DNA of 64,000 bases from an uncultured Gemmatimonadales bacterium. Lineage in GTDB: Bacteria > Gemmatimonadota > Gemmatimonadetes > Gemmatimonadales > GWC2-71-9. Both the position numbers and the translations under genes were made by a program. Shown here one piece after another: positions 23,905 to 61,986 of the stretch. Each line of letters begins with the position of its first letter. Position 1 is the first letter of the stretch. Where the stretch lies: positions 1,088,001 to 1,152,000 of the forward strand of contig CAVVKJ010000010.1 of the NCBI GenBank assembly GCA_963748815.1, written 5' to 3'. The notes beneath the pieces were generated by a model. That model saw nothing but the letters and a program-made list of their open reading frames with translations, was not told where the DNA came from and ran no database searches.

Positions 23905-26900
23905 ATGGCCTTCGCCCACCTACATACCCACAGCGAATACTCGCTCCTCGACGGCGCCAACCGCCTCGATGCGCTGGTCGACCACGTCCGGGGCATGGGC
24001 ATGGACAGCCTGGCCGTCACCGATCACGGCAACCTCCACGCGGCGTGGTCCTTTTACGAGGCCGCCAAGGCTGCCAAGATCCGCCCCATCCTCGGCTTTG
24101 AGGCGTACCTCGCTTTCGGATCCCGTCGGCAGCGCGAAAAGCCCTCCGGCGCCCCCGCCTTCTACAGCCACCTGGTCCTGCTGGCCCAGAACCGGACCGG
24201 CTACAAGAACCTGATCAAGCTCAGCTCGATCGGCTACACGGAGGGGTTCTACCGCCGGCCCCGCATCGACAAGGAAGTCCTCGAGGCGCATTCCGAGGGA
24301 ATCGTCTGTCTCGCCGCCTGCCTCTCGGGCGAGGTGGCGCTCTGGCTCCGCCAGGGCAACTACGAGGAGGCGCGGCGGAGCGCGGCCTGGTTCGCGAAGA
24401 CCTTCGGACCCGACCGGTTCTGGCTCGAGATCCAGAAGCACGGCATCCCGGAGGAGGACCTGGTCACCGAGGGGATGCTCAAGCTGGGGCACGACCTCGG
24501 CCTCGGGGTGGTCGCGACCAACGACGCCCACTACCTCCGCCGGGAAGACGCCGAGGCGCACGACGTCCTCCTCGCCATCGGGACGGGGTCCGACCTCGAC
24601 GACCCGAAACGGTTCCGCTTCACGGGACAGGAATCGTACGTGAAGTCCGAGAAGGAGATGCGGGCGCTCTTCCCCGACCATCCGGAAACGATCGACAACA
24701 CCCAGCGAGTGGCAGACCTCTGCGAACTCGATTTCGAAAAGCGGTACTTCCTTCCCGAGTTTCCCGCGGCCGGCGGGATACGACACCGACGAACGCCTCC
24801 TCGACCACCTCGCCCGCGAGGGGGCCGCCGAGCGGTACGGCTCGCCGCTGCCGGCGCCGGTGCTGGAACGGCTGGAATACGAGCTCGGCGTCATCAACAC
24901 CGCGGGCTACGCCGGGTACTTCCTGATCGTGCAGGACTTCATCGCCGCGGCGCGCGACCGTGGCATCCCGGTCGGACCGGGCCGTGGCTCCGCCGCCGGC
25001 TCGCTCGTGGCGTACGCCCTCCGCATCACCGACGTGGATCCGCTCCGGTTCGACCTGCTCTTCGAGCGGTTCCTGAACCCGGAACGCGTCTCGATGCCGG
25101 ACATCGACGTGGACTTCTGCTTCGAGCGGCGCGGCGAGGTCATCGAGTACGTCCGCGCAGCGCTACGGGCGGGAGAGCGTGGGGCAGATCGTCACCTTCG
25201 GGACGATGAAGGCGCGCGCGGCGGTCAAGGACGTGGCCCGGGTCCTCAAGATTCCGCCCGGCGAGGCGGACAAGATCACCAAGCTGATCCCGTCCGGCCC
25301 CGGCTTCAACGTGACGATCCCCGAGGCCGTGAAGAAGGTCAGCGAGCTCCGGGATCTGGTGAAGGGCAATCCGGTCTACGAGCGGCTGATGGACCTCAGT
25401 GCCCGGATCGAGGGGGTCTCCCGCCACCTGTCGGTCCACGCCGCCGGCGTCGTCATCGCCCCGGGTCCGCTGCGCCGACTACGTGCCCGGTCTGCACCAC
25501 GCCGACCAAGGGGGCCGGACAGTCGGCGGGCGGCGAGGACGTGATGATCACGCCAGTACGAAATGGGCGCGCTCGAGAAGGTCGGGATGCTCAAGATGGA
25601 CATCCTCGGCCTCAAGACGCTGACGGTGATCCACGACGCGCTGCAGATGATCGGCGTACGACACGGCGCCGCGCCCGACCTCTCCGTCACCACCTACGAC
25701 GACCCGAAGGTGTACGAACTGCTCCGGGACGGCCGCACCGCCGGCGTGTTCCAGTTCGAGTCGGCGCTCGCCACCGAGACGCTGCGCGCCATGCGGTGCG
25801 ACCGCTTCGACGACCTCGTCGCCACCAACGCCCTGCTCCGCCCAGGACCGCTCGACGCCGGCATGCACACGGTGTTCATCAAGCGGAAGCTCGGCCAGGA
25901 GGCGGTCACCTATCCCCACCCGTCGCTCCAGGGCATCCTGGAGCCGACCTACGGCGTCATCACCTACCAGGAACAGGTGATGCGCATCGCGAACGTGCTC
26001 GCCGGGTTCAGCCTGGCCGAAGCCGACGTGCTGCGGAAGGCGGTGGGCAAGAAGGACGAGGCGCTGATCAAGCAGGAGGTCGGGCAGTTCGTGGAGCGCG
26101 CCATGGCGCAGGGGCACCCCCGCCGCCTGGCGGAGGAGCTCGGCGGCGCAGATCGAGACCTTCGGGCGGTACGGCTTCAACAAGTCGCACTCCGTCGCGT
26201 ACTCGGTGCTCTCCTACCAGACGGCCTGGCTCAAGGCGCACTATCCCGCCGAATTCATGGCCGCGCTGCTTCAGCTCGGAAATCGGCAACACCGACAAGG
26301 TGGTGCAGTACATCAACGAGGCCCGCGAGCTGGGGCTGGAAGTGCTGCCGCCGGACGTGAACGAATCGGGGTTCAAGTTCACCGTCGTCGGCGAGAACCG
26401 GCTGCGGTTCGGGCTCGGCGCGGTGCGCAACGTGGGCGCCGGCGTGATCGAATCGATGATCAGCGCCCGGCGCGACGGACCGTTCCACGACCTCTGGGAC
26501 TTCGTCGGGCGGATCGACCTGCGGCTGGGCAACCGCCGCGTGATCGAATCGCTCATCGTGGCCGGCGCCTGCGACGGCCTGGGCGGGCATCGCCGGCAAT
26601 ACCTCGAGGCGCTCGACGCCGCCCTCGGCGAGGCGCAGCTGCGGCAGCAGGAGCGGGAGGCGGGGCAGTCCTCCCTCTTCGGTGAGGTGCTGGCGACCTC
26701 CAAGCCGGCGGGGCACAACCTCCCCGACGTGCCGCCGCTGCCGGAAGCGGACCGGCTGACCCGCGAGAAGGAGGTCATCGGCTTCTTCATCTCCGGTCAC
26801 CCGCTGGAGCGGTTCCGGGCCGAGGTCGAGCTGTTCGGGACGCGGACCACGGCCACCCTGCACGAGTGGAGCGAGCACGAGGTCAGCGTCGCCGCCGTGG

Positions 26901-27394
26901 TCACCGGACTCAAGCGGCAGATCTCCAAGAAGACCGGGAAGGAGTACGCCCGGCTCACCCTGGAGGACTTCCACGGCACCTCGGAGGCGATCGTCTTCCC
27001 CGACGCCTGGGCCAAGCTCAACCAGGTCATCACGGCGGACGCGGCCATTCTGCTGGGCGGCGGCTACAGCGCCCGGGACCGGGGGGAGGACCGGGCGCCC
27101 TTCGTGGTCGAGTCGGCCCGGCCCCTCGCCGAGCTCCGGGAGAGCGGGGCCCTGGGGGTCAGCCTCCGGTGGCGCGCCCCGGACGCCCCCCCGCCCGACG
27201 CCGTCAAGGCCGCCGCGGCCCTCTGCGCGTCGCATCCGGGGCCGGCGCCGGTCTATATTGAATGGAGCGACGGCAACGGCGAGGCCCTCCGGCTTCGCGC
27301 GCGCCGTCTTCGCATTGCCCCCGATGAAGACCTCCTCCGGGCCCTCCGCGAGCTGCTGGGTGCCGGTGCCGTTCACTACGTGAAGGCGGGGTAA
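23905..27394 (+). CDS. dnaE: DNA polymerase III alpha subunit (several frameshifts, likely errors)
   Basis: [16 protein letters not shown] domain, [27 protein letters not shown]-terminal OB fold. Confidence 0.95.
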
Positions 27395-40164: not shown

Positions 40165-41596
<1,432 letters not shown>

Positions 41597-41629
41597 GCGT
41601 TGGTATCCCGTGAAGTCAGAGTGATCGAG

Positions 41630-44117
<2,488 letters not shown>

Positions 44118-48127: not shown

Positions 48128-49079
48128 CTAGGCCGCATAGCTCGCCAGCGCCCGGCCGATGTCGCCCTCGCCGAGCCGCTTGAGGGCGCGATCGCGGAGC
48201 TGGCGCACCCGCTCGCGGGTCACGCCGAGCATGGTGCCGATTTCCTCGAGGGTGTGTTCCGGCCGTCGTCGAGGCCGAAGTAGAGGCGGAGGACCTGGCG
48301 TCGCGCGGCGGCAGCGAGGCGAGGGCGTGCTCGACTTCCTCGGAGAGGAAGCGTTCCATCGCTCGGGCCTCGACGTCGCTGGAGTCGTCGGCGACGAAGC
48401 GGTCGATGAGGGTGCGTTCGCCGCCGGGATCGAGGGGCGCATCGAGCCGCACGTCGCTGGTGTTGAGCGCCGTCGAGCGACTGGACCACATCCCGGAGAG
48501 CGGTCACCTCGCGGCGACTTCCTCGGGGGTCGGCTCGCGCACCAGTTTCTGGCGGAGGAGTTCGGTAGCGCGGATGATCCGCGAGAGATCGGCGGTGCGG
48601 TTGAGCGGGACGCGGACGGTGCGCCCCTGGCTTGGCGAGTGGCGGCGAGGATGGCCTGGCGGATCCACCAGACGGCGTAGGAGATGAACTTCACGCCCTG
48701 TCGGGATCGAACTTCCGGGCGGCGGTGAGCAGGCCGATGTTGCCCTCGCCGATGAGGTCGGTGAGGGCCATGCCGCGGTTCTGGTACTTCTTGGCGACGG
48801 AGATGACGAAGCGGAGGTTGCGCTTGACGAGCTCCTGCATGGCGTCCTGGTCGCCGGCGCGGACCCGCCGGGCGACGGCGATTTCCTGTTCGCGGGGTGA
48901 GGAGGGGGGTCTTGGAGACCTCGTGGAGGTACTGGTCGAGGATATCGCGCTCGGCGGCGCCCGCGCCAATGGCGCGGGGCGCGCGCCGCGGCGCGAGGCG
49001 GGGAAGCGGGGAAGCGGGGAGGCGGGGAGGGCTCGGCGGCTTCGGGCTTCGGCTTCTTGGCGGACTTCTTGACGGGCAT
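48128..49079 (-). CDS. RpoD/RpoS-like sigma-70 factor (frameshifted)
   Basis: [49 protein letters not shown]. Confidence 0.9.
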
Positions 49080-49096
49080 GGAGGGGCCTTTTCTGC

Positions 49097-49125
49097 TTGA
49101 CACAAGTGCAGCCCGCGTCTAGGTT
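49097..49125 (+). promoter_or_regulatory. Sigma-70 promoter of tRNA operon
   Basis: TTGACA-17 nt-TAGGTT. Confidence 0.65.
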
Positions 49126-49942: not shown

Positions 49943-49946
49943 TCAC

Positions 49947-49997
49947 ACACACACGACACCCCGTCCTCCACGAAGTGGGGGGCGGGGTTTGTGTGTC
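49947..49997. terminator. Bidirectional hairpin at left island edge
   Basis: ACACAC..CCCCGTCCTCCAC-GAA-GTGGGGGGCGGGG..GTGTGT. Confidence 0.6.
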
Positions 49998-50016
49998 AGG
50001 GACTTGTCGAGACGCG

Positions 50017-52206
50017 CTAGTTCCCGGTCCAGACTCCGGGCCGCACCGATCCCACCCAGGCCGGATTGTGGCCGTTGCCACTCTTGTCCGCGACGTCCGT
50101 GGGAGTTGGGTTCAGGTTCAGGTACCACGGCGTCCGCACCGAGCCAGGCGAGGCGATCTCCTGGGCGATCTGGGCCGGAGTCAGCACCACATCATAGAAT
50201 TGATAGCCGCGCAGGATGGCGTTGGGAATTTCCTTCCCCTGATTCCACGGCGCATCCCCGATGATGATCGCCGGGTCGCTCACCATCGAGAGGGCTCGCG
50301 CGTGCGTCCACTGGACCACGCCAGTGGTCGTGTTCGGCCAATTGAAATAGTAGGTATACACCTCATTGTTGCCCACCAGTTCGGCGGTGGCCACCTGCTG
50401 GTACCACTGGTTGTACCCCACGGGCACACCCTGCGCCCCGGACGTCGCCGTTCGGTCATCGCAGTACCCTGCGATTTCCCACTTGTGTTCCATGTTGGTT
50501 TCCCGGTCAGGCCACGGGTGGAAGCCGTAGTAGGTGTGACACGGTACCTCTCCCTGCGTCCACGTGGTTTCATACCTGGCATAGAATAGGAATGTCCAAT
50601 AGGACTGGAGAAAATTGTTGTTCGCCCGTGGGTATGCCCGCCAAATGTAGGTCGCCGGATAGGCGGGCATCGGGGCAGCCCCGCTCCGCGCCTGATTCCA
50701 GGTAAGGATGGCAGACGGGCTCTTCGAGGGGAAGTTGACATTCCCGGGGAAATCGAGGCCGGTGAGCAGCCCGGACGCCTGGGTCACCGTGACCGTACTG
50801 GTATCCGCCAGGCTCCCGCTCTGCTGCTGGGCGATGACCCGGAAGCTGCCCGCCGTATTGCCCGCCGCGTAGAATCCGCCGGAACTGATGCTGCCACCGG
50901 TGGCAGTATAGGTTACCGCCGGCGCCGTCGTGGCTCCGTCGCTCCACTGCCCGCTCACGCTGAACTGCTGCGCGCCGCCGGTGGTGAGCGACGCGGTGCT
51001 CGGCGTCAGGATCACCGCCTGGAGGACCGGCGGCGTGGTGGTCAGCGTGACCGTCGAGGTGTCTGCCAAGGTCCCGCTCTGCTGCCGGGCGATGACCCGG
51101 AAGCTCCCCGCCGTATTCCCCGCCGTGTAGAGCCCAGCACTGGTGACGCCGCCGCCCGTGGCAGTGTAGGTCACCGCCGGTGCCGTTGTGGCCCCATTAC
51201 TCCACTGCCCGCTCACGCTGAACTGCTGCGTGCCGCCGGTGGTGAGCGACGCGGTGCTCGGCGTCAGGATCACGGCCTGGAGGACCGGCGGGGTGGAGCT
51301 GAGGGTCACCGCGCTGGTGTCGGCCAGGGTCCCGCCCTGCTGCACGGCGATGACCCGGAAGCTCCCCGCCGTATTTCCAGCCGTGTAGAGCCCAGCACTG
51401 GTGACGCCGCCGCCCGTGGCACTGTAGGTCACCGCCGGTGCCGTTGTGGCCCCATTACTCCACTGCCCGCTTACGCTGAATTGCTGCGTGGCGCCGGTGC
51501 TGAGCGACGCGCTGCTCGGCGTCAGGAGCACGGCCTGGAGGACCGGCGGGGTGGTGGTGATGGTTACGGCGCTGGTGTCGGCCAAAGTCCCACCTTGCTG
51601 CGTGGCGATCACCCGGAAGCTGCCGGCCGTGCTTCCCGCCGCGTAGAGCCCGCCGGCATTGATGGACCCGCCGGTGGCGCTGTACGTCACCGCCGGCGCC
51701 GTCGTGGTCCCGTTGCTCCACTGCCCGCTCACGCTGAACTGCTGCGTGCCGCCGGTGGTGAGAGACGCCGTGCTCGGCGTCAGGATCACCGCCTGGAGGA
51801 CCGGCGGGGTCACCACGATGATGGTGGAATCCTTCGGGGTACACCTGTACCTGCGGCACCACCAAACCCAGAAAGAGCCAGCACTCAGGGAGCTGAACCG
51901 GGCGGTGGAATCCGTGAGTACCTCGACAGAGCCGCCGCTGGAGCCCCACTCGCCGTCCATCGCCACCTCCTCGCCACCCGGGTTCATGACGCTGGCTCGC
52001 AGCAGGGAACTTTCTCCAATCAGAAGGGCGGCCTTCTCTGCGGTAAGCGTCACCGACTCAACCGCATCCGGGCCAAGACTGTTCTTCAGCTCACCAGGGG
52101 CACAGGCAACGATCAACGATGCAAGCCCGAACGAAACGCGACGCAGGATAGCGCGGATCGCCGGCGGAGCTCGGAGTGCAGAAATTAGATTTGCCACGCT
52201 TGTCAC
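50017..52206 (-). CDS. Surface lipoprotein: Ig-like tandem repeats plus C-terminal ConA/LamG-like domain
   Basis: Lipobox LIVAC; four 86-aa Thr/Ser-rich repeats; Trp/Tyr-rich C-domain with DKSGNGH. Confidence 0.8.
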   Translation of the reverse strand: MTSVANLISALRAPPAIRAILRRVSFGLASLIVACAPGELKNSLGPDAVESVTLTAEKAALLIGESSLLRASVMNPGGEEVAMDGEWGSSGGSVEVLTDSTARFSSLSAGSFWVWWCRRYRCTPKDSTIIVVTPPVLQAVILTPSTASLTTGGTQQFSVSGQWSNGTTTAPAVTYSATGGSINAGGLYAAGSTAGSFRVIATQQGGTLADTSAVTITTTPPVLQAVLLTPSSASLSTGATQQFSVSGQWSNGATTAPAVTYSATGGGVTSAGLYTAGNTAGSFRVIAVQQGGTLADTSAVTLSSTPPVLQAVILTPSTASLTTGGTQQFSVSGQWSNGATTAPAVTYTATGGGVTSAGLYTAGNTAGSFRVIARQQSGTLADTSTVTLTTTPPVLQAVILTPSTASLTTGGAQQFSVSGQWSDGATTAPAVTYTATGGSISSGGFYAAGNTAGSFRVIAQQQSGSLADTSTVTVTQASGLLTGLDFPGNVNFPSKSPSAILTWNQARSGAAPMPAYPATYIWRAYPRANNNFLQSYWTFLFYARYETTWTQGEVPCHTYYGFHPWPDRETNMEHKWEIAGYCDDRTATSGAQGVPVGYNQWYQQVATAELVGNNEVYTYYFNWPNTTTGVVQWTHARALSMVSDPAIIIGDAPWNQGKEIPNAILRGYQFYDVVLTPAQIAQEIASPGSVRTPWYLNLNPTPTDVADKSGNGHNPAWVGSVRPGVWTGN
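50780..51810 (-). repeat. Four tandem 258-bp intragenic repeats
   Basis: PPVLQAV.LTPS..QQFSVSGQWS..AGSFRVIA unit recurs every 258 nt. Confidence 0.9.
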
Positions 52207-52526
52207 CTCATTGGAGTTCCCACGTCAAGGCCAATCAGCCGACTCTCGCGTTCTTGACCCGACGAGGTGGTCTGCTTGGAACTACCGGAAGGATTTACCG
52301 GCGAGTGCCGTAGAACCATCGCTCGAAGGGACGGATTGTGGGCTACACCGGAAGGTGGACAGGCGGCATGTGGGAGGTCGCTGGAGGGAGCTTGGCCGAC
52401 CGCATTGGTTAGGAATCCGGCGTCACTCCTGGATCGCCAGTCGGTCTCGGAAGCGTGGGCGAGTGCGAGGATTGTTGGGGGGGGACCAAGTGCGATATCA
52501 CAAGTCAGGTCAATGAGATCCTATCC

Positions 52527-53630
52527 CTAGGGTCCGGTCCAGACTCCCGGCCGCCCCGGTCCCACCCAAGCCGGGTTGTGGCCGTTGCCACTCTTGTCCG
52601 CGACGTCCGTGGGAGTTGGATTCAGGTTCAGGTACCACGGCGTCCGCACCGAGCCGGGGGAGGCGATCTCCTGGGCGATCTGGGCCGGCGTGAGCGCCAC
52701 ATCATAGAACTGGTAGCCCCGCAGAATGGCATTGGGCACTTCCCTGCCCTGATTCCATGGTGCGTCCCCGATGATGATGGCAGGATCGGTGTTGGGCAAG
52801 TCCTTCGCGTGCGTCCACCGGATCACATCGGTCGTCGTGTTCGGCCAGTTGAAATAGTAGGTGTACACCTCGTTGCCGCCAATCAGTTCGGTGGTGGCGA
52901 CCTGCTGGTACCATTGGTTGTACCCGATGGGCACGCCCTGCGCCCCGGACGTCGCCGTCCGGTCGTCACCAAAAGCGGAAATCTCCCACTTGTGCTCCAT
53001 ATTGGTTTCCCGGTCAGGCCACGGGTGAAAGCCATAGTACGTCTTGGACGGGATCTCCCCCTGCGTCCACGTAGTCTCGTACCTGGCATAGAACAAGAAG
53101 GTCCAGTAGGACTGGAAAAAATTGTTATTCGGTCGTGGGTAGGCTCGCCAAATGTAGGTCGCCGGATAGGCCGGGAACGGAGCCGCGCCGCTCCGAGACT
53201 GATTCCATGTGAGGATGGCGGACGGGCTCGGAGATGGGTAGTTGACGTTCCCGGGGAAATCGAGGCCGGCAAGTGACTCCGATGGCTGTGTCACCGTCGC
53301 CGACGCCGAACCGCGTTGACCTTCACTCGCCGCCGCGATATCAGACAACCCGGCCGCCACTGCTTTGACGAGGCCGTTCCCGTCAACCGTGGCCCGGGAA
53401 GGCTGACTCGACGCCCAAGTCACGATCCGCCCCGTGAGCACAACCCCCGCCGCATCACGCAGCGTCGCCACCAATTGTCTTGACTGCCCTACTTCCAGGA
53501 CCAGGTTTCCGGGGGAAACCGTTACCGAGGCGACTGACGCCGGAACGGACTCCGTCGCGTCCGGACTGCACGAGAACGCCGCACACACCGCCGCGAGCAT
53601 GGCGGAGAGGTTGCGCGCCTGGCTCCACAC
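52527..53630 (-). CDS. Lipoprotein: one Big_2-like domain plus the same C-terminal domain (paralogue)
   Basis: Lipobox AFSC; VASVTVSP..VTWASSQPSRATVD; C-domain near-identical to 50017..52206. Confidence 0.8.
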   Translation of the reverse strand: MWSQARNLSAMLAAVCAAFSCSPDATESVPASVASVTVSPGNLVLEVGQSRQLVATLRDAAGVVLTGRIVTWASSQPSRATVDGNGLVKAVAAGLSDIAAASEGQRGSASATVTQPSESLAGLDFPGNVNYPSPSPSAILTWNQSRSGAAPFPAYPATYIWRAYPRPNNNFFQSYWTFLFYARYETTWTQGEIPSKTYYGFHPWPDRETNMEHKWEISAFGDDRTATSGAQGVPIGYNQWYQQVATTELIGGNEVYTYYFNWPNTTTDVIRWTHAKDLPNTDPAIIIGDAPWNQGREVPNAILRGYQFYDVALTPAQIAQEIASPGSVRTPWYLNLNPTPTDVADKSGNGHNPAWVGPGRPGVWTGP

Positions 53631-53737
53631 GCCCCCGCGTCGATATTCCGGCACGGCGGGGAGCGCCGTGGGCGCCGACGGGAGGAGCACTTCGAGGTGG
53701 CCAGATTCCGGGAAAGCAGGTGGGTACCATCGGGGCA

Positions 53738-54934
53738 TCAGATCGTCCGTTGCGGCGAGCCCAGCGCCTTCGCGAAGCGCCACCAGCGTCGTCCGGCCTG
53801 CAACTGCCCGGCGAGGCGCTCCCCCACCCCCCGGTCCCGGTCGAGCCTGAAGACGCGTTTGAAGAGCTCGTTGGACTGCCAGGGCCGGGAGTCGCCGTGC
53901 CCGGAAGCGCGTGGCTGGATTCCGGCGCTCCAGAGGAGCTTCGCCATCCAGACGGACGGACAGGCCCCGAAGAGCCCGGTCGTGATGTAGCCCCGCTCCA
54001 GCGCGTGGCTCAGGACCGCGGGCTGCTGTGGACGGAGGGCTTCGAGGACGGTCTTCGGGATCGGCGTACCCGACAGGGTGTGTGTGATCGCGAGCGTCCA
54101 GTACGCACACGTTCCGGCTCGTGTGCGGACGGCCAGCTCGGTGAATCGGTCCCAGTCGAAGGGTGCCGCGGCCAGGATGGTCGCGATGTCCCGGACCGTG
54201 CGGCCCATGCCGCTGAACATGTGCGACCAGGCGAAGTGCACGGACAGGTGCAGCAGTTGATGATGATCGGACGGCACCCACGCCTCGACATCGCCAAGCC
54301 TGACCGGCCTGGCGTCACGCCAGAGCTCGGCCACGTCAAGCTGAAACGGCCCGGTCGGAGGCAGCATGGAACGGTGAATTTCCAGCACCAGATTGAGACC
54401 CTTTGGATCCACCAGGCCGGGGAGGTGCTGGTGCCCCTCGAAGAACTGTTCGCCTCCCTCCAGTTCAAGCCCCCACCCGGCCTCCCGCATGATCTGCCAG
54501 GCGCGTTCCGACTCACCGACTGGCACCAGGATGTCGAAGTCTCCCATCGGCCGCTTCAGAAACGACCCATAGACCGTGGTCGCCAGCGCCGCCCCCTTGA
54601 GCAGCATGACGCGGATCCCGTTGCGCGCGAGCGTCGCGGCCACCTCCCGCAGGGCGGTCTCCGTCAACGCCATCCGGAACTCGGTCACGGCGGCCTGGGC
54701 CTGGAACGCCGCCCGGACATCCGGGGGGACGAGCTCGGACTGTGCCCGCATGTACTTCCAGAGCACGGGGAGCAGCTTCTCCCGTTCCGCCAGCGCACCA
54801 ACCGCCCGCCAGTTCGGCCGGGAGGCCGCGAGTGCGGCAAAGTACGTCTCCCCGCACACGGCGTCCGGACGTGCGGCAAGGAAGAGCAACCGGGCCTCGT
54901 CAGGGAGCAGTGGCATGGGAGAAAACCGGTTCAA
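53738..54934 (-). CDS. Nucleotidyltransferase family protein (NTP_transf_5-like)
   Basis: LLKGAAL..YG..RPMGDFDILV, LEIH, LLHLSVH. Confidence 0.85.
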   Translation of the reverse strand: MNRFSPMPLLPDEARLLFLAARPDAVCGETYFAALAASRPNWRAVGALAEREKLLPVLWKYMRAQSELVPPDVRAAFQAQAAVTEFRMALTETALREVAATLARNGIRVMLLKGAALATTVYGSFLKRPMGDFDILVPVGESERAWQIMREAGWGLELEGGEQFFEGHQHLPGLVDPKGLNLVLEIHRSMLPPTGPFQLDVAELWRDARPVRLGDVEAWVPSDHHQLLHLSVHFAWSHMFSGMGRTVRDIATILAAAPFDWDRFTELAVRTRAGTCAYWTLAITHTLSGTPIPKTVLEALRPQQPAVLSHALERGYITTGLFGACPSVWMAKLLWSAGIQPRASGHGDSRPWQSNELFKRVFRLDRDRGVGERLAGQLQAGRRWWRFAKALGSPQRTI

Positions 54935-55731
54935 TATTGGGCCAGGGTGCCCTGTCGGCGCGCGTACCGAAAGGCGGCGGTGATGGCGGCTGTGCCGATC
55001 AAGAAGAGTATAACCGTCGCGGCCGAGAGCGCGAGGAGGTCAGGGGCGACGTCGGCGATGGACGCGTCCTGAAGCACCACGCGCCGGAGCGCGCGGAGTC
55101 CGTAGCTCAGGGGGAGCAGATCCGAGACCGACTGCAGCCAGGAGGGGATCACGTGCGTCGGGTAATAGACTCCGCCAAGCAGCCCGGAGATCATCAGCAC
55201 CCCCTTCGGCAAGGGGCCGGCGGTGCGAAAGGCGAGCACGAGGGCCGCCCCGACCAGGCCGATGGGGACGTGCGCCAACACGACGAGCAGCAGGATGGCG
55301 AGCCCCGGCAGGAATTGCCCGGGCATGAGATTGGCGCCAAGGAGCCACCCGGCCATGAGGAGGATGGCCCCCTTCAGGGCGGCCCACAGCATGTCGAAGG
55401 CGTTCAGGCCGGCGAGGAGGGCGGGGCCGGAGGTCGGCGTGGCCAGCAACGCCTCGAGCACCCCGCTGGCAACTGCGCTGCCGACCGCCGCGGGGAGGGC
55501 TACGACGGCGACGGAAACCACCGAGAACGTGGTCAGGCCGACTAGCAGAAAGCCAAACGACTGCCCCCCCTCCATCTTGATGGCGTTGGCCATGACCGGC
55601 TGGAGTGCGCCGGAGATGAAGTAGAGCGGAACGACCGTAGCGAGGAGGCCGGCGATCGAGACCACCATTTGCAGCCGATAGCTGAGCATCGTCTGCCAGT
55701 GTGCACGGCACAGTGCAGCAATCCGTCTCAT
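54931..55731 (-). CDS. ABC-2 type exporter permease
   Basis: Six TM, GVLEALLATP, LLGGVYYP..PSWLQ..LPLSY. Confidence 0.9.
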   Translation of the reverse strand: MRRIAALCRAHWQTMLSYRLQMVVSIAGLLATVVPLYFISGALQPVMANAIKMEGGQSFGFLLVGLTTFSVVSVAVVALPAAVGSAVASGVLEALLATPTSGPALLAGLNAFDMLWAALKGAILLMAGWLLGANLMPGQFLPGLAILLLVVLAHVPIGLVGAALVLAFRTAGPLPKGVLMISGLLGGVYYPTHVIPSWLQSVSDLLPLSYGLRALRRVVLQDASIADVAPDLLALSAATVILFLIGTAAITAAFRYARRQGTLAQY

Positions 55732-56817
55732 TGCGGTCCCCTCGCGACGACCCGCTCGATCAGATCCGCCAGGCTCAGCGGGACATGCGAGAGCTCGCTT
55801 ACCGGTACACCCTCGGCGACGAGTCGGCTCGTGAGGTCAGCGCACGCCAAAGCGCCGCCGGGGATGGCGCCCTCGAGCTCGCACCATCCAGACTCGGGCG
55901 CGGGCTGCTCGATGAACGGGCCAAGGCCGGTCGTCTGGAGGACTTGTCGTGCCTCGCGCATTCGGTCGGCTGCGACTGAAATCCGGTAGCGGTTCTCGCC
56001 GGCGATCGCGGCGAGTTCCGATGCAGATCCGTGGGCGATGACCGTGCCCCGGTCCAGCACCGCCAGCCGGTCGCAGAGCTCGAATGCCTCGTCCGCGTCG
56101 TGGGTCGCCAGGAGGACGGTACACCCCTGTCGACCGACAATCTCCTCGCGGAGAAATCGGCGAAAGTCGCGGGCGCTCACGGGGTCGAGACTGCGGGTCG
56201 GCTCGTCGAGGAGGAGGACGGCTGGGCGGGAGAGGAGGGCACGCGCGATCAGCAGGCGCTGCTTCATGCCGGAGGAGTAGGTACCGACCATTCGGCTTCC
56301 CGCGTGGGCAGAGTCCGACCGCATCGAGGAGCCGCTCGGCGGTCCGCTCCCGCTCCGCCTGGTTTCACGTCATACAGTGCGGCGTAGAGCGCCAGATTCT
56401 GCAGACCGGAGAGTCGCCAGTAGAGGCTTCGCTCATCGGCGATGACGGGAGTGAGCATCCCGCGCACGGCAGCCGGATCGGTCAGGACGCTGCGACCGCC
56501 GACTTCGACGGAGCCGGCGTCGGGGAGCACCAGGGTCGCCAGGATCTTGAAGAGGGTCGTCTTCCCCGCCCCGTTGGGTCCCAGCAGTCCAAAGAACTCG
56601 CCCTTGTCGAACGTCGAGCGACACGCCCGCGCAGCACCTCGACTTGCTCCCGGTGGAAGGGACGCCGGAGTGTGTCGGTCCACGATCGGCGCAGGGGAAA
56701 GGTCTTCACCAGCCCGTCGACATGAACAATAGGCTTGTGCGCCGGGTCGCCGCGCGAGGCGCCCACGTCCGGCCTGGACCCATCGCGAGCGACCCGAGCG
56801 TCATCGACTGGCTCATG
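55728..56817 (-). CDS. ABC exporter ATPase (frameshifted; start approximate)
   Basis: [24 protein letters not shown] in separate frames. Confidence 0.85.
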
Positions 56818-57779
56818 CCGGGCCCGGAGCGGAGCTGGGGACTCTTGCGCGGAGTGCCATCCCATCAGACTGGAGGTCAGCTCCCCGATCCGCTCGAAGT
56901 CGCGCGGAATTTCCAGCCGGTAGACAGGCACCCGCTCCCCCAGCTCCACCAGGCGCTGCAGCAGCACCGCCCGCCGTTCGACGCCGAGGAGCGCGCCCGA
57001 CCTTCGTCTGGCCGAGGAGCGCGAGGGCAGCTTCGACAGCCGATAGGCGCGTTCCGGTTCACGATGCCCCCTGCGTCAGACTTGATCGGAGCGAGGAGGT
57101 AGACGCGCCGCGAGCGGGACCGCGGCTGTGGCATTCCGATCGGGGTCTTTCCAGGCGACCTGGAGCTTTGGCGCCAGCTGCTCCGGCGTCACGGGTGAGG
57201 CTTGGCCCGCGACCCGTGCGGCGGAGTCGGCCCAGAGTTGCACGACGGGGACGCTGGGCAACACCAGGGGATGCTCGCCGGAGGTGACGGGGACGAGGTC
57301 GTCGGCGAGCAGCCGTCCCCCGGCGTTCACGAGCGCGGTGGCGGTGGTGGACTTTCCGTGGAACTTTGGGCGCGAGAAAGGCGACGGCAACGTCGCCGAG
57401 GGCGACGGCGCTCCCGTGGAGCGTGATGATATCCTCCTGGTCCAGCGCCACGGCGAAGACTCGCCCGAGGATGTCCTTGCGGACGGCGTCCATGTCGGGT
57501 TCGGGCGGTGGCAGCCCAGTCGATCCTCCGGCCATCTGCGGAAATGTCGAACACCCCGGTATCGTCGAACGCGAGGCGGAGGGCCCGACCTGCACGGTAG
57601 AGTGACACGCTGACCCCGGCATCGACGTCCTCTGTCCCCAGTCGGCTCAGGTCAGGGAGAGGGGGTGGTGCGTTCAGGCGGTGGAGGGACCAATCAGGGA
57701 ATTGGGCGGGGCGGGGAATGAGCTCAGGAAACTCTACTTCCGAGCGGAAGACACCGCCGAAGAGATGGTAGTCTGGCAT
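56814..57779 (-). CDS. HPr-kinase-like lasso peptide kinase (frameshifted)
   Basis: LHGSAV, APKFHGKST P-loop, LLADD, VPVYRL. Confidence 0.75.
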
Positions 57780-57843
57780 TGGGAGTCCGGGTTGGAGGGT
57801 CGGACGGCCTGACCCGCTGGCCGCCCGGCCCCACAGTCGGAAC

Positions 57844-57982
57844 CTACGACCGCGTGCACCCAACGGTGCAGCCGTCAAGGAAGCCGCTGCCGAGAAACGC
57901 CACCGTCCCCATCGGCGCCAGTGCCGACGAGGGTGAGGGCCCGAAGGTCCCCGAACCGCTGAAGAGCAGGCTTCTGATACAT
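57844..57982 (-). CDS. Lasso peptide precursor A2 (one extra base near 57894)
   Basis: AAGGAG RBS; MYQKPALQRFGDLRALTL leader (YxxPxLxxxGxxxxxT); corrected core VGTGADGDGGVFGSGFLDGCTVGCTRS. Confidence 0.85.
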
Positions 57983-58036
57983 GATGCGCTCCTTCGAACA
58001 GTATTCACGGGCAGCTGGCCCGCACAGCCCACGGCC

Positions 58037-59999
58037 TCATGCCGCAGGAAACTCCACTGCCCGGTCGCTTGACCCGATGGAGGACAGTGACCGGCGATTC
58101 ACGTTGTTCCAGCCCACGCAGCCAAAATTCGGTCTTGATCGTGTGAAAGAGGTTCACTCTCACGAACTCGTTGCACCAGTCACTGGAGTAACTGTCCACC
58201 GCCCTCCGGAGGGCCGGCAAGTCCACGATGCCAAGTTCCGCGAGTCGCAGCGGTTCGGAGAAGAGTTTCGCGAATAGTGCCGGATAGGATTCGCTCATCC
58301 GGCGTTGTGAGAATCCGATGGTCATTCCCGTTCGGTGAGGTCGCGGCGCCAAGACCGATTCCGGCAGCAAGCCAACCATCGCCTGGCGGAGGAGGATCTT
58401 GGTCTCGGTGCCGTCAGCACGCTCGGCAATTGGCCGCCGAAGTGCGAAGTCCACGATCCTCAAGTCCAGCAGCGGCGATCGAACCTCGACCCCTTCTTGT
58501 AGCAGCGGACCCCGCATGAACGCCCCACCCCACCCCCAAACCGGCAGCGTGAGGTAGAGCAGGCTCTCGGTCTGCGCCAGTCCGTGGCCTCGTACCCTCC
58601 CGAACACCGAAAGATCCCGCTCGCGCAGGCTGCTGCACGGCCAGGAACTCCGGGCGAACCCATGTCGCCGGGGCGCGCTCGAGGTAGTGCCGGGGGAGCC
58701 GGTGCCCGAGCACTCGCTCCCCAAATTGGACGACCGATCGGGGAAGGAGTGGCAGCACTCCGGCTCGGACGAGGTGCCGCCAGCCGCGCGGCCATCGCGT
58801 CCGCGCCGAGCTTCAACGAACTCCCCCCAGCGGCCGGTTCGGAGCAGGTCCGCAAGCAGGACGTCTGACACCTGGAAGAGCTGATCGCCACCACATCCGT
58901 CCAGCGTGACCCGTGCGCCGGCGCGGCGCGTGCCCTGCGCAAGGCCTCGATTCCAGAGTTCGTACAAATGCGCCGGCGGCTCGTCGTACTGTGCCGCGCG
59001 GTCCTCAAGTCGTTCGAGCATCTGGAGATCGTCGCTCTGGAGCCAATGAACCTCAGCCTTCCAGTGCTCAGCGACCTGACGTGATGAACTCGTCCTCGTG
59101 GCCTGGGTCACCCTCCGGATAACTGATCGACACCGGACGAAGTCGTGGCCGTGTCTCGGGGGTCAGGGCATGTTGACCGGCGCGCAAAGACAGCCGTCGA
59201 GTCCCAGCCACCGCTCATCCAGACCGTGCGTCACGCCGCTGGCAGAGCCGTTGGGAGACGGCCGTGCACAGCAGTTCCCGAAGTTCATCTGCGGCCTCAG
59301 CGGACGGCGCTGGATGCCGGTCGGGAGCCTCCCGAGGTTGCCACCAGGTCGCCGTCGCTGCGTCGCCGTCCCGCCAGACGACTCTACGCCCGGGGAGAAG
59401 CGTGTCAACTCCCCTGATACGCTGTGTCCATTCCGTTCGACCATGCCAACCCGGCGACTTGGCCGCCGAGATTGGCCAGGTTCAGCTGGTTGGTCGTGCC
59501 CCGCAGTTCTGCCAGCGCCCGGCAGGAGGAGGCCACGGCAATCCCGGAGCCGAGGCTCGCGCACAAAAAGTGGGCGCCCACCGATCGGGTCCCGCGCCGC
59601 GAGCAGGGTTCGGCGGCGGCGGTCCCAGATCACGAACGCGTAGTCACCGTTCAGGTGGTGGACCATCTCCGAGCCCCACGCGCGGTAGGCCGCTTCCAGG
59701 TAGTGGCTCGCCGTCTCGCCCCGCGCTCGCACGCCAGCCGTCGAGAGCTTCCGCGCGAGTCCCTTCTTGTCAAAGAGCGAGGCGTCCGCCGCCACCACCA
59801 GGTCTGGCGTCTCGAGTACCAGCACGTCGACCGCTGAAATCGTCGTCGAGCTGCCATTCCTTCCGCGTCACGACGAGGAGCGCGTCCTCCTCCGACCAGA
59901 CCTGCTCCCGGTCGCCGCCGAGGTAGCGGAGCGGCGCCGAGCGCCGACTCCACCCGGGAGTCGCGCACCTGACCGATCGACCGCGAGGATGCCGCTCAT
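58037..59999 (-). CDS. Lasso cyclase (asparagine synthetase-like; frameshifted; 3' end approximate)
   Basis: MSGIL start (no catalytic Cys), GDYAFVIWD..AARDPIG, SGGWDST, DGCGGDQLF, EVRSPLLD. Confidence 0.85.
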
Positions 60000-60448
60000 G
60001 GCGCCAGCGCCGAGAAATCGTGCAGCGGCGTGAAGCGGCTGCACCCGCGACCTGCTCGTCACCGATGACCCGGCCCTCGAGCTCGATCCAGGCGTGGGCC
60101 AGCAGCTCCCCCGCAACCTGCGCCACGCCGACCCGGACGACGGCGGGCCCGGCGTTGGCCCGCCGGATCTGGCGCTCCAGCGCCACCGCCCGGACGAGGC
60201 AGGTGGGCCGGAAGAGTCCGAAGCGGGCCACGCGGTCCACCGCCAGGGCCAGCCGCTCCAGACGCGCATCGTTGCGGACACCCGCTCGCCGTCGGTGCCG
60301 CGCTCAGCGGGCGGAGCAGCTCGCCCTTCGGGCGTCGCCGGATCGTCCAGAGCGCCGCCAGGAGATACCACTGGGCGAGGACCAGGTCGGCAAACTCCCG
60401 CGGCGTGAGGGTGAAGAGCCTCCTCACGACACCGCATCCAGCGGTCAA
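59996..60448 (-). CDS. Lasso leader peptidase B2 (transglutaminase-like; frameshifted)
   Basis: TCLVRAVAL..VRVGV..AHAWIE; TGA overlaps cyclase ATG. Confidence 0.85.
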
Positions 60449-60765
60449 ACACCGGCGTCGTCCTCACGTCGACGTCCACCAGCAGCTTGGCCTCGCGGAG
60501 CTGATCGAGCAGTTCCGATGACATCCGCCGCGAGCTGCGCTCCGGGGACGTCGGGATAGACCTGTCCGAGCCGTGCGCAGAGATCTTCCAGGCTGGCGCA
60601 CGCAGGTGGCAGCAACTGCCAGATCCGCGCACCAACATCATTGAGCCCGAAGTAGATCTCATCCTCCATCTGCAGGAGGACGGCGCCTTCGGAGACTTCC
60701 CGGAACATGACGGCCGGGTGGGGACGAGGAAGAATGGTCGGAGCCTCCGCATGAGCGCGGTTCAC
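60445..60765 (-). CDS. PqqD-family RiPP recognition element (lasso B1)
   Basis: EGAVLL..EIYFGLNDVGARIWQLL..L.DV.ELLDQLREAKLL. Confidence 0.85.
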   Translation of the reverse strand: MNRAHAEAPTILPRPHPAVMFREVSEGAVLLQMEDEIYFGLNDVGARIWQLLPPACASLEDLCARLGQVYPDVPGAQLAADVIGTARSAPRGQAAGGRRREDDAGV

Positions 60766-61087
60766 GGGAAATCCCGGATTCGAATTGATTGAGGAACGCC
60801 GGGGCCTCCGGCGAGAGAAGAGCTTGAGGCAAGGACAATTCCCGAACTGCCACCGTGTCGGGAGTCGCCACAAATGCTTGTCAGTGAATGGCTTAGAAAC
60901 TGATGCCACGGGGGATTCGGCGCCCGTGCCGAGTCATCGGCGCCGAGCCGGATCCACGGGAATGTCGGGGGGGCACGACACGACTGCAGAGAGTTGTCAG
61001 TGCACGGGGCTGTCTGTGCGGTGTTGGCTCCTGGGCGAGAGACCGGACGGGCTCGTGTGCGAACCGCCCAGTCTCCCAGAACGTGGC

Positions 61088-61229
61088 CTACGATCTCCCG
61101 GCGCACCCGATGGTGACAACCATCGATGTACCCGGTGCCGAAGATGCCACCGTCCCCATCGGGACCGAGCCCGATGAGTGTGAGGGCCCGAAGGTCCCCA
61201 AACCGCCGAAGTACGGGTTTCTCGTACAA
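61088..61229 (-). CDS. Lasso peptide precursor A1 (TTG start; one extra base near 61115)
   Basis: AGGAG RBS; MYEKPVLRRFGDLRALTL leader; corrected core IGLGPDGDGGIFGTGYIDGCTIGCAGRS. Confidence 0.85.
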
Positions 61230-61339
61230 GCGGGCTCCTGGGAAGAGTGTCACGGGCAACTGGCCCGCACAGTTCGCGACATGGCGCCGCGCCGACCGTG
61301 ACAGACGGTCAAGCGCCCCGCTCGTCACCAGCGGTAAGG

Positions 61340-61355
61340 GCAACTCCCGTTCCAG
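61340..61355 (-). promoter_or_regulatory. Putative sigma-54 promoter of lasso operon
   Basis: CTGGAAC-GGGAG-TTGC on minus strand about 110 nt upstream of A1. Confidence 0.55.
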
Positions 61356-61414
61356 TGATCACGGTCGATGCGGCCAATTGCGCTTCGGAAGACCGCTTGA
61401 CCAAGCAGTTGCAA

Positions 61415-61427
61415 TATCAACACTTTA
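61415..61427. promoter_or_regulatory. IHF consensus site
   Basis: TATCAA-CACT-TTA matches WATCAANNNNTTR. Confidence 0.45.
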
Positions 61428-61584
61428 GGAGCGGTGATCCTCGAGATGGACCGTGCAAATTGTGATGTGGACAACCGGGGAGCCGAGTACCGCAGCGACT
61501 ACGCCACACTTCCCGACACACAACACCCCGTCCCTCCTCTCGGAGAGCGGGGCTTGTGCACTCCCCCGGACCGACCCTCCGGGG

Positions 61585-61986
61585 TCAGACCCGCGCGTTC
61601 GCCACCGCGCGGACCACGTCGCTCTGCGAGATGACTCCCAGCAACTCGCCGTCCTTCTCGACGAAGAGCCGGTGCACGTTGGCGTAGAGCATCTGCTGCG
61701 CCGCCTGCTTCACCTCCGCCTGCGGCTCGATGGTCATCGGCTTCGGCGTCATCAGGTCCCGTACCAGCATGTTCTCGAACATCGCCCCCGCCTCGGCGTC
61801 GACGCCCCGCTCCGCCAACGCGGTCAGGATGTCGCTCGTGGAGAGCACCCCCACCAGGTGCAGGCTGGCATCCACCACCGGCAACCCGGTCACGTGCGCG
61901 TCGGCCAGGGAAATGATCGCTTCGGACATCGGGCTGTCACTGGGGATCGTCACCAGGTTGGACTGCATCAGCTCACTGACTCGCAT
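61585..61986 (-). CDS. CBS domain pair protein
   Basis: VSELM, GLPVVD..LVGVLSTSD, VRDLMT, LLGVISQSD. Confidence 0.9.
   Translation of the reverse strand: MRVSELMQSNLVTIPSDSPMSEAIISLADAHVTGLPVVDASLHLVGVLSTSDILTALAERGVDAEAGAMFENMLVRDLMTPKPMTIEPQAEVKQAAQQMLYANVHRLFVEKDGELLGVISQSDVVRAVANARV

Follow-up and report, generated by a model that had tools for sequence, protein, structure and literature searches.

The closest described counterpart of the predicted lasso peptide gene cluster considered here is the pseudomycoidin (psm) system of Bacillus pseudomycoides (PMC6993621; this and the other papers given by PMC number are cited from excerpts). Our cluster, and within it the precursor gene A2 that is the subject of this study, lies on the minus strand of a 64,000-nucleotide stretch of an uncultured Gemmatimonadales bacterium (assembly GCA_963748815.1, contig CAVVKJ010000010.1, positions 1,088,001 to 1,152,000; hereafter the window, to which coordinates refer unless a contig is named). 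Both systems have a split B1/B2 pair, a cyclase, an HPr-type kinase, a nucleoside triphosphate transferase with a DxD motif and an ATP-binding cassette (ABC) exporter, and in both the core ends in Ser and starts with a residue other than Gly. Pseudomycoidin differs in its host phylum (Bacillota), in its ring, which was shown by nuclear magnetic resonance to join Ala1 to Asp9 where Val/Ile1 to Asp8 is predicted here, and in its unmodified product, which is unthreaded; no disulfide is described in the excerpt of PMC6993621.

Paeninodin and the ThcoK and SyanK systems (PMC9266682), compared by description, share with our locus a His-Lys-Asp-Asp kinase acting on the C-terminal Ser of a linear precursor, and cores of the form x-Gly following Thr-x. 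Paeninodin itself, however, is a class II peptide without a disulfide, its 9-residue ring is closed from Ala, and its pade cluster is given without a nucleotidyltransferase. The Cys pair finds its parallel in the class IV peptides LP2006, felipeptins A1 and A2 and pandonodin (PMC9266682, PMC12214591), which have an 8-residue ring followed by one Cys pair, spaced C-x3-C in LP2006 and both felipeptins. Unlike the peptide predicted here they have Gly1-Glu8 rings and a first Cys at position 13 (16 in pandonodin) instead of 20, none ends in Ser, and class IV clusters are not described with a kinase or nucleotidyltransferase in the excerpt of PMC9266682. Large hydrophobic first residues (Leu1, Trp1, Tyr1) after Thr-x are established in citrulassin, stlassin, lagmysin, fusilassin, cellulassin and halolassin, with Leu1-Asp8 rings among them, but these residues are not beta-branched and the peptides, from Actinomycetota, are described with neither a disulfide nor a terminal Ser kinase. 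The bsf system of Bradymonas sediminis (PMC10368454) resembles ours in its Gram-negative host, in an identical spacing of kinase motifs, in an Asp8 acceptor and in an N gene in some clusters, whereas it phosphorylates Ser3, has Ile(-2) and Gly1, and its mature lasso peptide was not detected. By analogy, then, the cluster is best described as pseudomycoidin-like and its Cys pair as LP2006-like.

The family to which A2 belongs already stands in a public prediction table. Gemmatimonadota entries of LassoPred (PMC12214591) such as MQA92414 and MCG8469487 have the same leader, Ile1 or Val1, a ring length of 8, two Cys and an Arg-Ser end, and 28 of the 31 Gemmatimonadota rows among those listed in its Supplementary Data 1 are such family members; the core of MQA92414 is the same as that of one of the precursors we collected (L037). 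These entries are predictions only: among the matches listed, their rows give neither a name nor a PDB structure, and the excerpt of the paper does not discuss them. A survey of marine Gemmatimonadota counts lasso clusters in 29 genomes, and its excerpt does not give their chemistry.

Our overall reading, to which we give slightly better than even credence, is that of a B1-B2-C-A-K-ABC-NT cluster (K, kinase; NT, nucleotidyltransferase) whose precursor core is broken by one base, likely a sequencing error, and whose product would carry a phosphorylated terminal Ser, a Val1-Asp8 ring closed around the tail and a Cys20-Cys24 disulfide. The features of A2 that carry this reading are the following.

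57844 to 57982, minus strand: precursor gene A2, an 18-residue leader and a 27-residue core; 139 nucleotides, one base above a whole number of codons
57989 to 57995, minus strand: GAAGGAG, the Shine-Dalgarno-like sequence of A2, seen in the sequence
57929 to 57982, minus strand: A2 leader with Tyr(-17), Pro(-14), Leu(-12), Gly(-8) and Thr(-2), the Thr codon at 57932 to 57934; above the cut-off of NF033521
57905 to 57928, minus strand: predicted ring of A2, Val1 to Asp8, with the Asp8 codon at 57905 to 57907 and Thr at core position 3
57892 to 57899, minus strand: interval within which the surplus base lies, probably introduced by the assembly and leaving residues 11 and 12 uncertain
57856 to 57870, minus strand: Cys20-x3-Cys24, a predicted disulfide, from the sequence and the pairing of Cys in the family
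57844 to 57852, minus strand: Arg26, Ser27 and stop, Ser27 being the predicted kinase target

The 18-residue lasso leader begins at the ATG at 57982, downstream of the GAAGGAG ribosome site, and scores 24.2 bits against the NCBIfam model NF033521 (cut-off 19). The core would start with the Val at 57928, two residues past Thr(-2), and continues to Asp6 and Asp8, while the CTVGC motif and the closing Arg-Ser-stop (57870 to 57844) stand in another frame than the leader and ring half. As assembled, A2 runs into a stop after 35 codons, without any Cys or a terminal Ser, and this genome thus holds no open reading frame for the full A2 precursor. A preliminary description of this DNA had given a 27-residue core, which is right in outline, but it had corrected the frames of A2 and of its paralogue A1 silently and left the break unreported. 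DNA alignment with intact orthologues shows exactly one extra column in A2, and 19 of the 20 collected orthologues with cores of 26 to 30 residues have both Cys20 and Cys24; judged by these sequences, the intact orthologues confirm a 27-residue core with Val/Ile1, Asp8, Cys20, Cys24 and an Arg-Ser end. Depending on where the extra base is placed, residues 11 and 12 read Phe-Leu, Val-Leu, Val-Phe or Val-Ser; they would be Val-Leu if it is the TTT run that was over-called. Among the eight collected orthologues that share the YQKPAL leader of A2, six have Leu12 and none has Phe12, and residue 12 of A2 is likely Leu, with Phe12 holding for A1. That A2 is a real lasso precursor, chance being excluded, follows from its neighbours, a lasso cyclase gene on one side and an HPr-type kinase gene on the other, and from the occurrence of the family in the phylum, where the precursor profile matches 61 of 401 genomes (a tally that includes the present genome, G000, and G157). 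Within the genus it matches 9 of 17 genomes. Of 13 genome loci found by precursor alignment, 12 carry titles that name Gemmatimonadota groups.

The paralogue A1 shows the same architecture.

61088 to 61229, minus strand: precursor gene A1, with TTG start, Ile1, Asp8, Phe12, Tyr16, Cys20, Cys24 and an Arg-Ser end; 142 nucleotides, with an extra base within 61106 to 61119

Its extra base falls at or just past Cys20, and it has Leu3 where A2 has Thr3. A programmed frameshift in A2 and A1 was considered and rejected: the orthologues are in frame and the two breaks lie at different places. A second lasso cluster of the genome, 17 kilobases (kb) past the window (contig C10, 1169209 to 1169358; L050), encodes an in-frame precursor with Ile1, Asp8, two tail Cys and an Arg-Ser end; this protein is identical to its counterpart in genome G138, and the second cluster of G000 is itself also broken.

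We consider it very probable, judging from the assembled sequence, that the frame breaks in A1, A2 and the rest of the cluster are assembly errors, because dnaE in the same window (23911 to 26998) is likewise in five pieces and a sigma-70 factor gene (48128 to 49105) is broken across three frames; for 57000 to 61400 no sequencing runs are listed, which speaks neither for nor against this. Over 8.6 kb aligned at 90.6% identity, 27 extra single bases and 4 missing ones are counted in G000 relative to G138, and 26 of the 27 extras recur within 7 bases when G053 is the partner. Were the breaks real, this copy would be a decaying pseudogene island and the peptide would be made by intact relatives only. 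Such a decay would suit the count of broken genes (seven of nine: A1, B1, B2, C, A2, K and the ABC ATPase), the position of the cluster within a variable island beside a tRNA-Arg gene, and the intact state of the nearby Usp, CBS, permease and nucleotidyltransferase genes. We regard it as most improbable, since dnaE and the sigma-70 factor are broken in the same way, ordinary DNA contains patches of one-base extras peculiar to G000, the second cluster is also broken though its precursor is identical to that of G138, and catalytic motifs, ribosome sites and RNA leaders are all retained. One dense patch of one-base extras lies at 40700 to 44000. Caution is warranted with any further result from this assembly that depends on a frame break or a short open reading frame, and experiments on the peptide must rely on an intact orthologous cluster.

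To place A2 within its family we used 154 distinct complete precursors, leaving out the broken reading of the window itself and the locus of G157. Two properties of this set weigh against our reading: it was built from similarity (the best 80 of 306 metagenome hits) plus a leader pattern that demands the Thr, which biases it toward Ile and Val starts, and its members are kin, so that the counts are descriptive. Thinning at 70% similarity leaves 97 representatives and the same picture. Most cores have 17 to 50 residues, with most of the length variation past residues 17 to 19. A PDB sequence search with the precursor profile gave no match in a library restricted to chains of at least 20 residues, a result that is hardly informative for short lasso peptides. 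Three loci (L082:2200, L149:323, L192) carry, beside normal precursors, His- and Phe-rich cores after the same leader with an Arg-Ser end, one with and the others without Asp8; these may be uncyclised or metal-binding variants.

The leader of A2, with Tyr, Pro and Leu at -17, -14 and -12 (YxxPxL) and Thr at -2, follows the register by which the core start was placed in PMC10368454. Applied to the 154 precursors, this register puts Ile at residue 1 in 50, Leu in 22, Val in 20, Ala in 17, Gly in 12, Thr in 11, Trp in 9 and other residues in 13; the canonical starts Ala and Gly thus occupy the position that Val and Ile also take, and Ala-Gly starts after Thr-x also appear in the paeninodin-family rows of LassoPred Supplementary Data 1 (PMC12214591). 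Both A1 and A2 have Asp8 within the expected acceptor range of positions 7 to 9. Asp8 is found in 128 of the 154 cores and in 124 of the 136 with Gly2, as against 60 of 154 for Asp6, and two natural orthologues (P0008, P0016) have Asn6 and retain Asp8. We therefore regard the Val/Ile1-Asp8 ring as highly probable from sequence comparison, in line with the register and acceptor proposed in the preliminary description. A bsf-like register, with Val or Ile as residue -2, was rejected: it leaves a 6-residue ring and displaces the YxxPxL motif.

Alternatively, the mature ring might begin at Gly (Gly1 to Asp7, with the same Asp as acceptor), through a cut three residues past Thr or through trimming of residue 1 by an aminopeptidase. 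Here the retention of Gly2 in 136 of 154 cores, which suits such a ring equally well, speaks against our assignment, as do two precursors (L212 and L218) that differ by one extra Ala ahead of the same Gly-led ring; moreover, a Gly1-Asp7 ring is known in huascopeptin, and Gly is residue 1 in 20 of the 28 PDB-linked rows of LassoPred, the rest having Cys (3), Ser (2), Leu (2) and Asp (1), where the paper counts 47 structures (PMC12214591). Yet a Gly start would need Thr at -3 and would move Tyr, Pro and Leu off -17, -14 and -12; Leu1 (citrulassin, stlassin), Trp1, Tyr1 and Ala1 are established starts, LassoPred gives family members a ring length of 8, and no precedent for trimming of residue 1 was found in the literature looked at. 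A Gly-led ring is thus quite unlikely, and Val/Ile1-Asp8 is kept in what follows. Val or Ile at residue 1 had been called atypical for lasso peptides, which stands insofar as Val, Ile or Thr starts none of those 28 PDB-linked cores (of 47 structures). It needs the correction that Ile1/Val1-Asp8 cores are already published as predictions, both for the present family and in lagmysin-family rows with Asp8 (one with Val1, three with Ile1; LassoPred Supplementary Data 1, PMC12214591).

Frame-corrected A2 has exactly two Cys, both past the ring and none within it, as in class IV. Within the family, 28 of the 154 cores have no Cys, 1 has a single one, 114 have two and 11 have three, where 47.5 single-Cys cores would be expected if Cys occurred independently; among the 97 thinned representatives there are 70 pairs and again one single-Cys core. 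The pairing extends to cores with a Cys in the ring, each of which has exactly one later Cys (26 of 154; a single Cys occurs in only one of the other 128), and in L071 Cys3 was gained and Cys20 lost. It is because the cysteines of the family come in pairs that we predict, with strong confidence from sequence, a Cys20-Cys24 disulfide, so that comparison gives indirect support to the tail disulfide that had been proposed. The proposed conservation of a CT(V/I)GC motif does not hold: close orthologues share C-x3-C only, spacing is modular at 1 to 35 residues, and close relatives without any Cys exist. No ring Cys, the mark of class III, occurs in A1 or A2. The 26 relatives that have one form a class III-like branch (L041, L042, L043, L071, L077, L080, L081, L086 and others) with kinase and terminal Ser, the ring Cys standing at position 7, adjoining Asp8, in 18 of them. 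The 11 cores with three Cys past the ring (L044, L047, L123-L127, L180) have one near position 13, and the odd third Cys could serve in a dimer or a further modification.

The fold depends on where the tail crosses the ring, and class IV requires both Cys below it (PMC9266682). A 19-member subfamily of close relatives had been defined partly by positions 16 and 17 and is hence not evidence for them, so that the count was redone on 37 cores chosen on residues 1 to 10 alone. Of these, 36 have Tyr, Phe, Arg, Leu or Trp at position 16 and 32 have Leu or Ile at position 17, whereas 13 have Phe at position 12. Phe12 and Phe/Tyr16 had been put forward as steric plugs; Phe12 finds no support for A2, with its likely Leu12, and position 16, together with 17, offers the better candidates. 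On the simplest reading of these sequences, the ring would be threaded near residues 16 and 17, leaving the Cys pair in the tail; a threaded class IV lasso with both Cys below the ring appears likely. AlphaFold2 is reported to fail on lasso folds (PMC12214591).

A ring and a disulfide could also form without giving class IV, either as a branched cycle or loose lasso, or with threading near the C-terminus, both Cys in the loop and Arg26 with a phospho-sugar on Ser27 as the lock. Indeed, and this weighs against our reading, pseudomycoidin made without its kinase and nucleotidyltransferase products is a branched cycle and not a threaded lasso, for which a hexose-phosphate lock was proposed (PMC6993621); an Arg-Ser end is found in 86 of the 154 cores, and since loops of up to 20 residues are known (PMC13352647), one of 16 to 17 residues is possible. 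Core lengths of 17 to 50 with variation past residues 17 to 19 would, however, demand loops of about 40 residues, the Cys-free members keep the bulky pair at 16 and 17, and the 8-residue ring is tighter than the 9-residue ring of pseudomycoidin. We hold such a form to be unlikely and retain the class IV lasso as the preferred structure.

The cluster is ordered A1, B1, B2, C, A2, HPr-type kinase, ABC ATPase, ABC-2 permease and NTP_transf_5, with the enzyme and transport genes located as follows.

60477 to 60752, minus strand: B1, PqqD-family leader-binding protein (PF05402), in two frames
59996 to 60424, minus strand: B2, leader peptidase of the Transglut_core3 type (PF13471; above the cut-off of NF033537), in three pieces, with catalytic Cys and His motifs present
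58005 to 59999, minus strand: C, lasso cyclase of the asparagine-synthetase type (PF00733), in at least five pieces
56848 to 57779, minus strand: K, HPr-type kinase with His, Walker A (Ala for the first Gly) and Asp-Asp, in at least three pieces, one break within the P-loop
55728 to 56816, minus strand: ABC transporter ATPase, in at least three pieces
54931 to 55731, minus strand: ABC-2 permease, intact
53738 to 54934, minus strand: NTP_transf_5 nucleotidyltransferase, PsmN-like (PF14907, E 1.5e-43), intact, with DxD motif

The three proteins that lasso peptides require are thus all present by PF05402 (B1), PF13471 and NF033537 (B2) and PF00733 (C), and they are whole at three related loci (L035, L149, L151), which also carry the kinase, ABC, permease and nucleotidyltransferase genes; most fetched loci have the same gene set as the window. 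Three further observations count against the assignment. The best NCBIfam match of an intact cyclase orthologue, NF033535, scores 203.5 where the cut-off is 525; the kinase reaches no curated cut-off and matches PF07475 and TIGR04352 weakly; and at the syntenic locus L031 (G083:C24), which has an orthologous precursor, no B2, kinase, ABC or nucleotidyltransferase gene was found in the 19 kb fetched. The flanks of L031 hold B1, a cyclase gene, two GT2 glycosyltransferase genes and a GNAT gene, and G083 has the lacking genes at another cluster (L036).

The His-Lys-Asp-Asp motif of the kinase is recovered in the pieces of the window at relative positions +0, +21, +38 and +39. Across the family, His, Lys, Ser and Asp-Asp stand at the spacing of the Bradymonas kinase BsfK in 98 to 99 of 99 distinct segments, those of the window included. 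Like A1 and A2, 138 of the 154 cores end in Ser, and 144 have Ser within the last two positions. For 60 precursors with 5 kb of context on each side and a cyclase nearby, a kinase was found near 56, of which 46 end in Ser, and kinase, nucleotidyltransferase and terminal Ser occur together for 22 of the 31 cores with two tail Cys and such context. We predict from these sequences that the terminal Ser is probably phosphorylated by the kinase; its choice as the likely target had been made earlier from the window alone and agrees with both the motif spacing and the Ser ends.

The kinase might instead act on a ring residue, namely Thr3 in A2, or on another site, or only weakly. BsfK phosphorylates Ser3 and accepts Thr3 (PMC10368454), and A2 has Thr3. 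Further points here run counter to the terminal Ser: 10 of the 56 kinase-linked cores lack it, while all four cores without a kinase found nearby have it, and in 89 of 99 kinase segments Ala replaces Gly163 of the P-loop, a residue that BsfK needs. The family P-loop (near 57370 in the window) is also often without the middle Gly, unlike that of BsfK. Nevertheless, Ser or Thr at position 3 occurs in 15 of 154 cores as against 138 with terminal Ser, the paralogue A1 has Leu3, PadeK, ThcoK, SyanK and PsmK all act on a C-terminal Ser (PMC9266682), and the Ile(-2) that the bsf system uses is absent here, its place being taken by Thr(-2). A site other than the terminal Ser is therefore very unlikely in our view. 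For the next step, PsmN needs its DxD motif (PMC6993621), and DxD is retained in 58 of 58 nucleotidyltransferase segments; by analogy with pseudomycoidin, a nucleotidyltransferase-dependent hexose on the phosphate of the terminal Ser has a chance that we put just short of even.

Both precursor genes of the window are preceded by a structured RNA leader, recognised by family comparison.

58007 to 58048, minus strand: conserved RNA leader of A2, in which an H-type pseudoknot with stems of 3 and 6 base pairs comes after a hairpin
61252 to 61291, minus strand: the same RNA leader before A1

The hairpin and pseudoknot recur in 80 of 152 upstream regions of the family and end 10 to 15 bases ahead of the ribosome site, whereas the rate was 4.3% in shuffled sequences and 25 of 600 at other start sites in the genome. 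The pairs of the 3-base-pair stem covary (CTG/CAG 42, CTT/AAG 13, CTC/GAG 5, CAG/CTG 4, CCG/CGG 4). When the 6-base-pair hairpin was located without demanding the shorter stem, the 3-base complement was present in 63 of 89 cases as against a permutation mean of 20 (maximum 33), and for loops not starting with CAG in 31 of 47 against 8 by permutation. The permutation test measures covariation better than the MAFFT alignment, in which the first hairpin is wrongly placed (58% of cells paired) and the CTT/AAG rows are out of register. Of the 17 hits of a covariance model across 151 genomes, the best 12 lie before lasso precursors (11 of training type and one more), while the other five are weak (E 0.026 to 0.043) and have no precursor downstream; the model missed the leader of the third precursor of G000. 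Rfam returned six weak matches within 57700 to 61600 at E up to 10, none of them at 58007 to 58048 or 61252 to 61291, and the two leaders, folded as single sequences, did not stand out from shuffled ones (z -0.85 and 0.01). Among the literature matches listed, none joins lasso peptides with a pseudoknot. The RNA leader likely stabilises or boosts the precursor message. Its action as a block to 5'-3' decay is a weakened proposal, since RNase J (TIGR00649) is above cut-off in none of the 17 genomes of the genus.

The layout of the leader recalls the tRNA-like acceptor pseudoknots of plant viruses.

Together with two Ig-like (immunoglobulin-like) genes, the cluster forms a variable island (49943 to 61547) between an array of seven tRNA genes that ends in tRNA-Arg(CCG) and a CBS gene. 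The site is empty in G053 and carries different inserts in G138 and G151, while in G083 and G150 other lasso clusters follow the same CBS gene. The two Ig-like genes lie just downstream of the nucleotidyltransferase gene (50017 to 52206 and about 52527 to 53750, minus strand) and encode intact proteins with Big_2 repeats that share a C-terminal domain without a Pfam or NCBIfam match.

Nothing was found, in mostly open literature, that contradicts the earlier claim that no characterised lasso peptide has both a tail disulfide and a phospho- or glyco-Ser end. Searches for phosphorylation together with a disulfide in lasso peptides, again of mostly open literature and hence provisional, returned only reviews and unrelated systems, and searches for ring names with Ile1 or Val1 found no paper, which is equally provisional with subscription papers mostly outside the literature covered. 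It seems that a combination of Val/Ile1, a tail disulfide and a phospho-Ser end has not been isolated before. Each part has a known precedent; what appears to be new is the combination.

As a mechanism we propose that the kinase would phosphorylate the last Ser while the precursor is still linear, an order taken from paeninodin, after which B1 and B2 would cut two residues past Thr(-2) and the cyclase would join Val1 to Asp8 around the tail. The Cys20-Cys24 disulfide would likely form beyond the ring and, as has been proposed for LP2006 and pandonodin, may need no enzyme of its own; a hexose might be added to the phosphate in dependence on the nucleotidyltransferase, as for pseudomycoidin, and the ABC-2 transporter would export the peptide. 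With the tail threaded near residues 16 and 17, as family comparison suggests, the variable, Cys-bearing part would hang below the ring in the manner of class IV. The RNA leader of each precursor gene, by stabilising or boosting its message, would let the peptide outnumber its enzymes. As to the role of the product, our default guess is a secreted signal or antagonist.

More broadly, and we advance this only tentatively as a doubtful extension, A2 may represent a large Gemmatimonadota family, not yet isolated, whose cyclases close on beta-branched Val or Ile, whose scaffold switches between classes II, III and IV by gaining or moving Cys, and whose Ser end carrying a phospho-hexose would make its members the first with both a disulfide and a phospho-sugar terminus, with an uncatalogued pseudoknotted RNA per precursor setting the ratio of peptide to enzyme. 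Of the constraints on lasso cyclases, which serve as tools in engineering, that on residue 1 is the tightest; with 70 of the 154 precursors starting with Ile or Val, the family would, if the assignment is true, offer cyclases tolerant of hindered amines. How the disulfide classes interconvert would be seen from its natural class II, III and IV members, which share one scaffold, and the family offers many candidate-soluble orthologues of PsmN-like nucleotidyltransferases. The gain would thus lie in a new combination and a test bed, not in a new kind of system.

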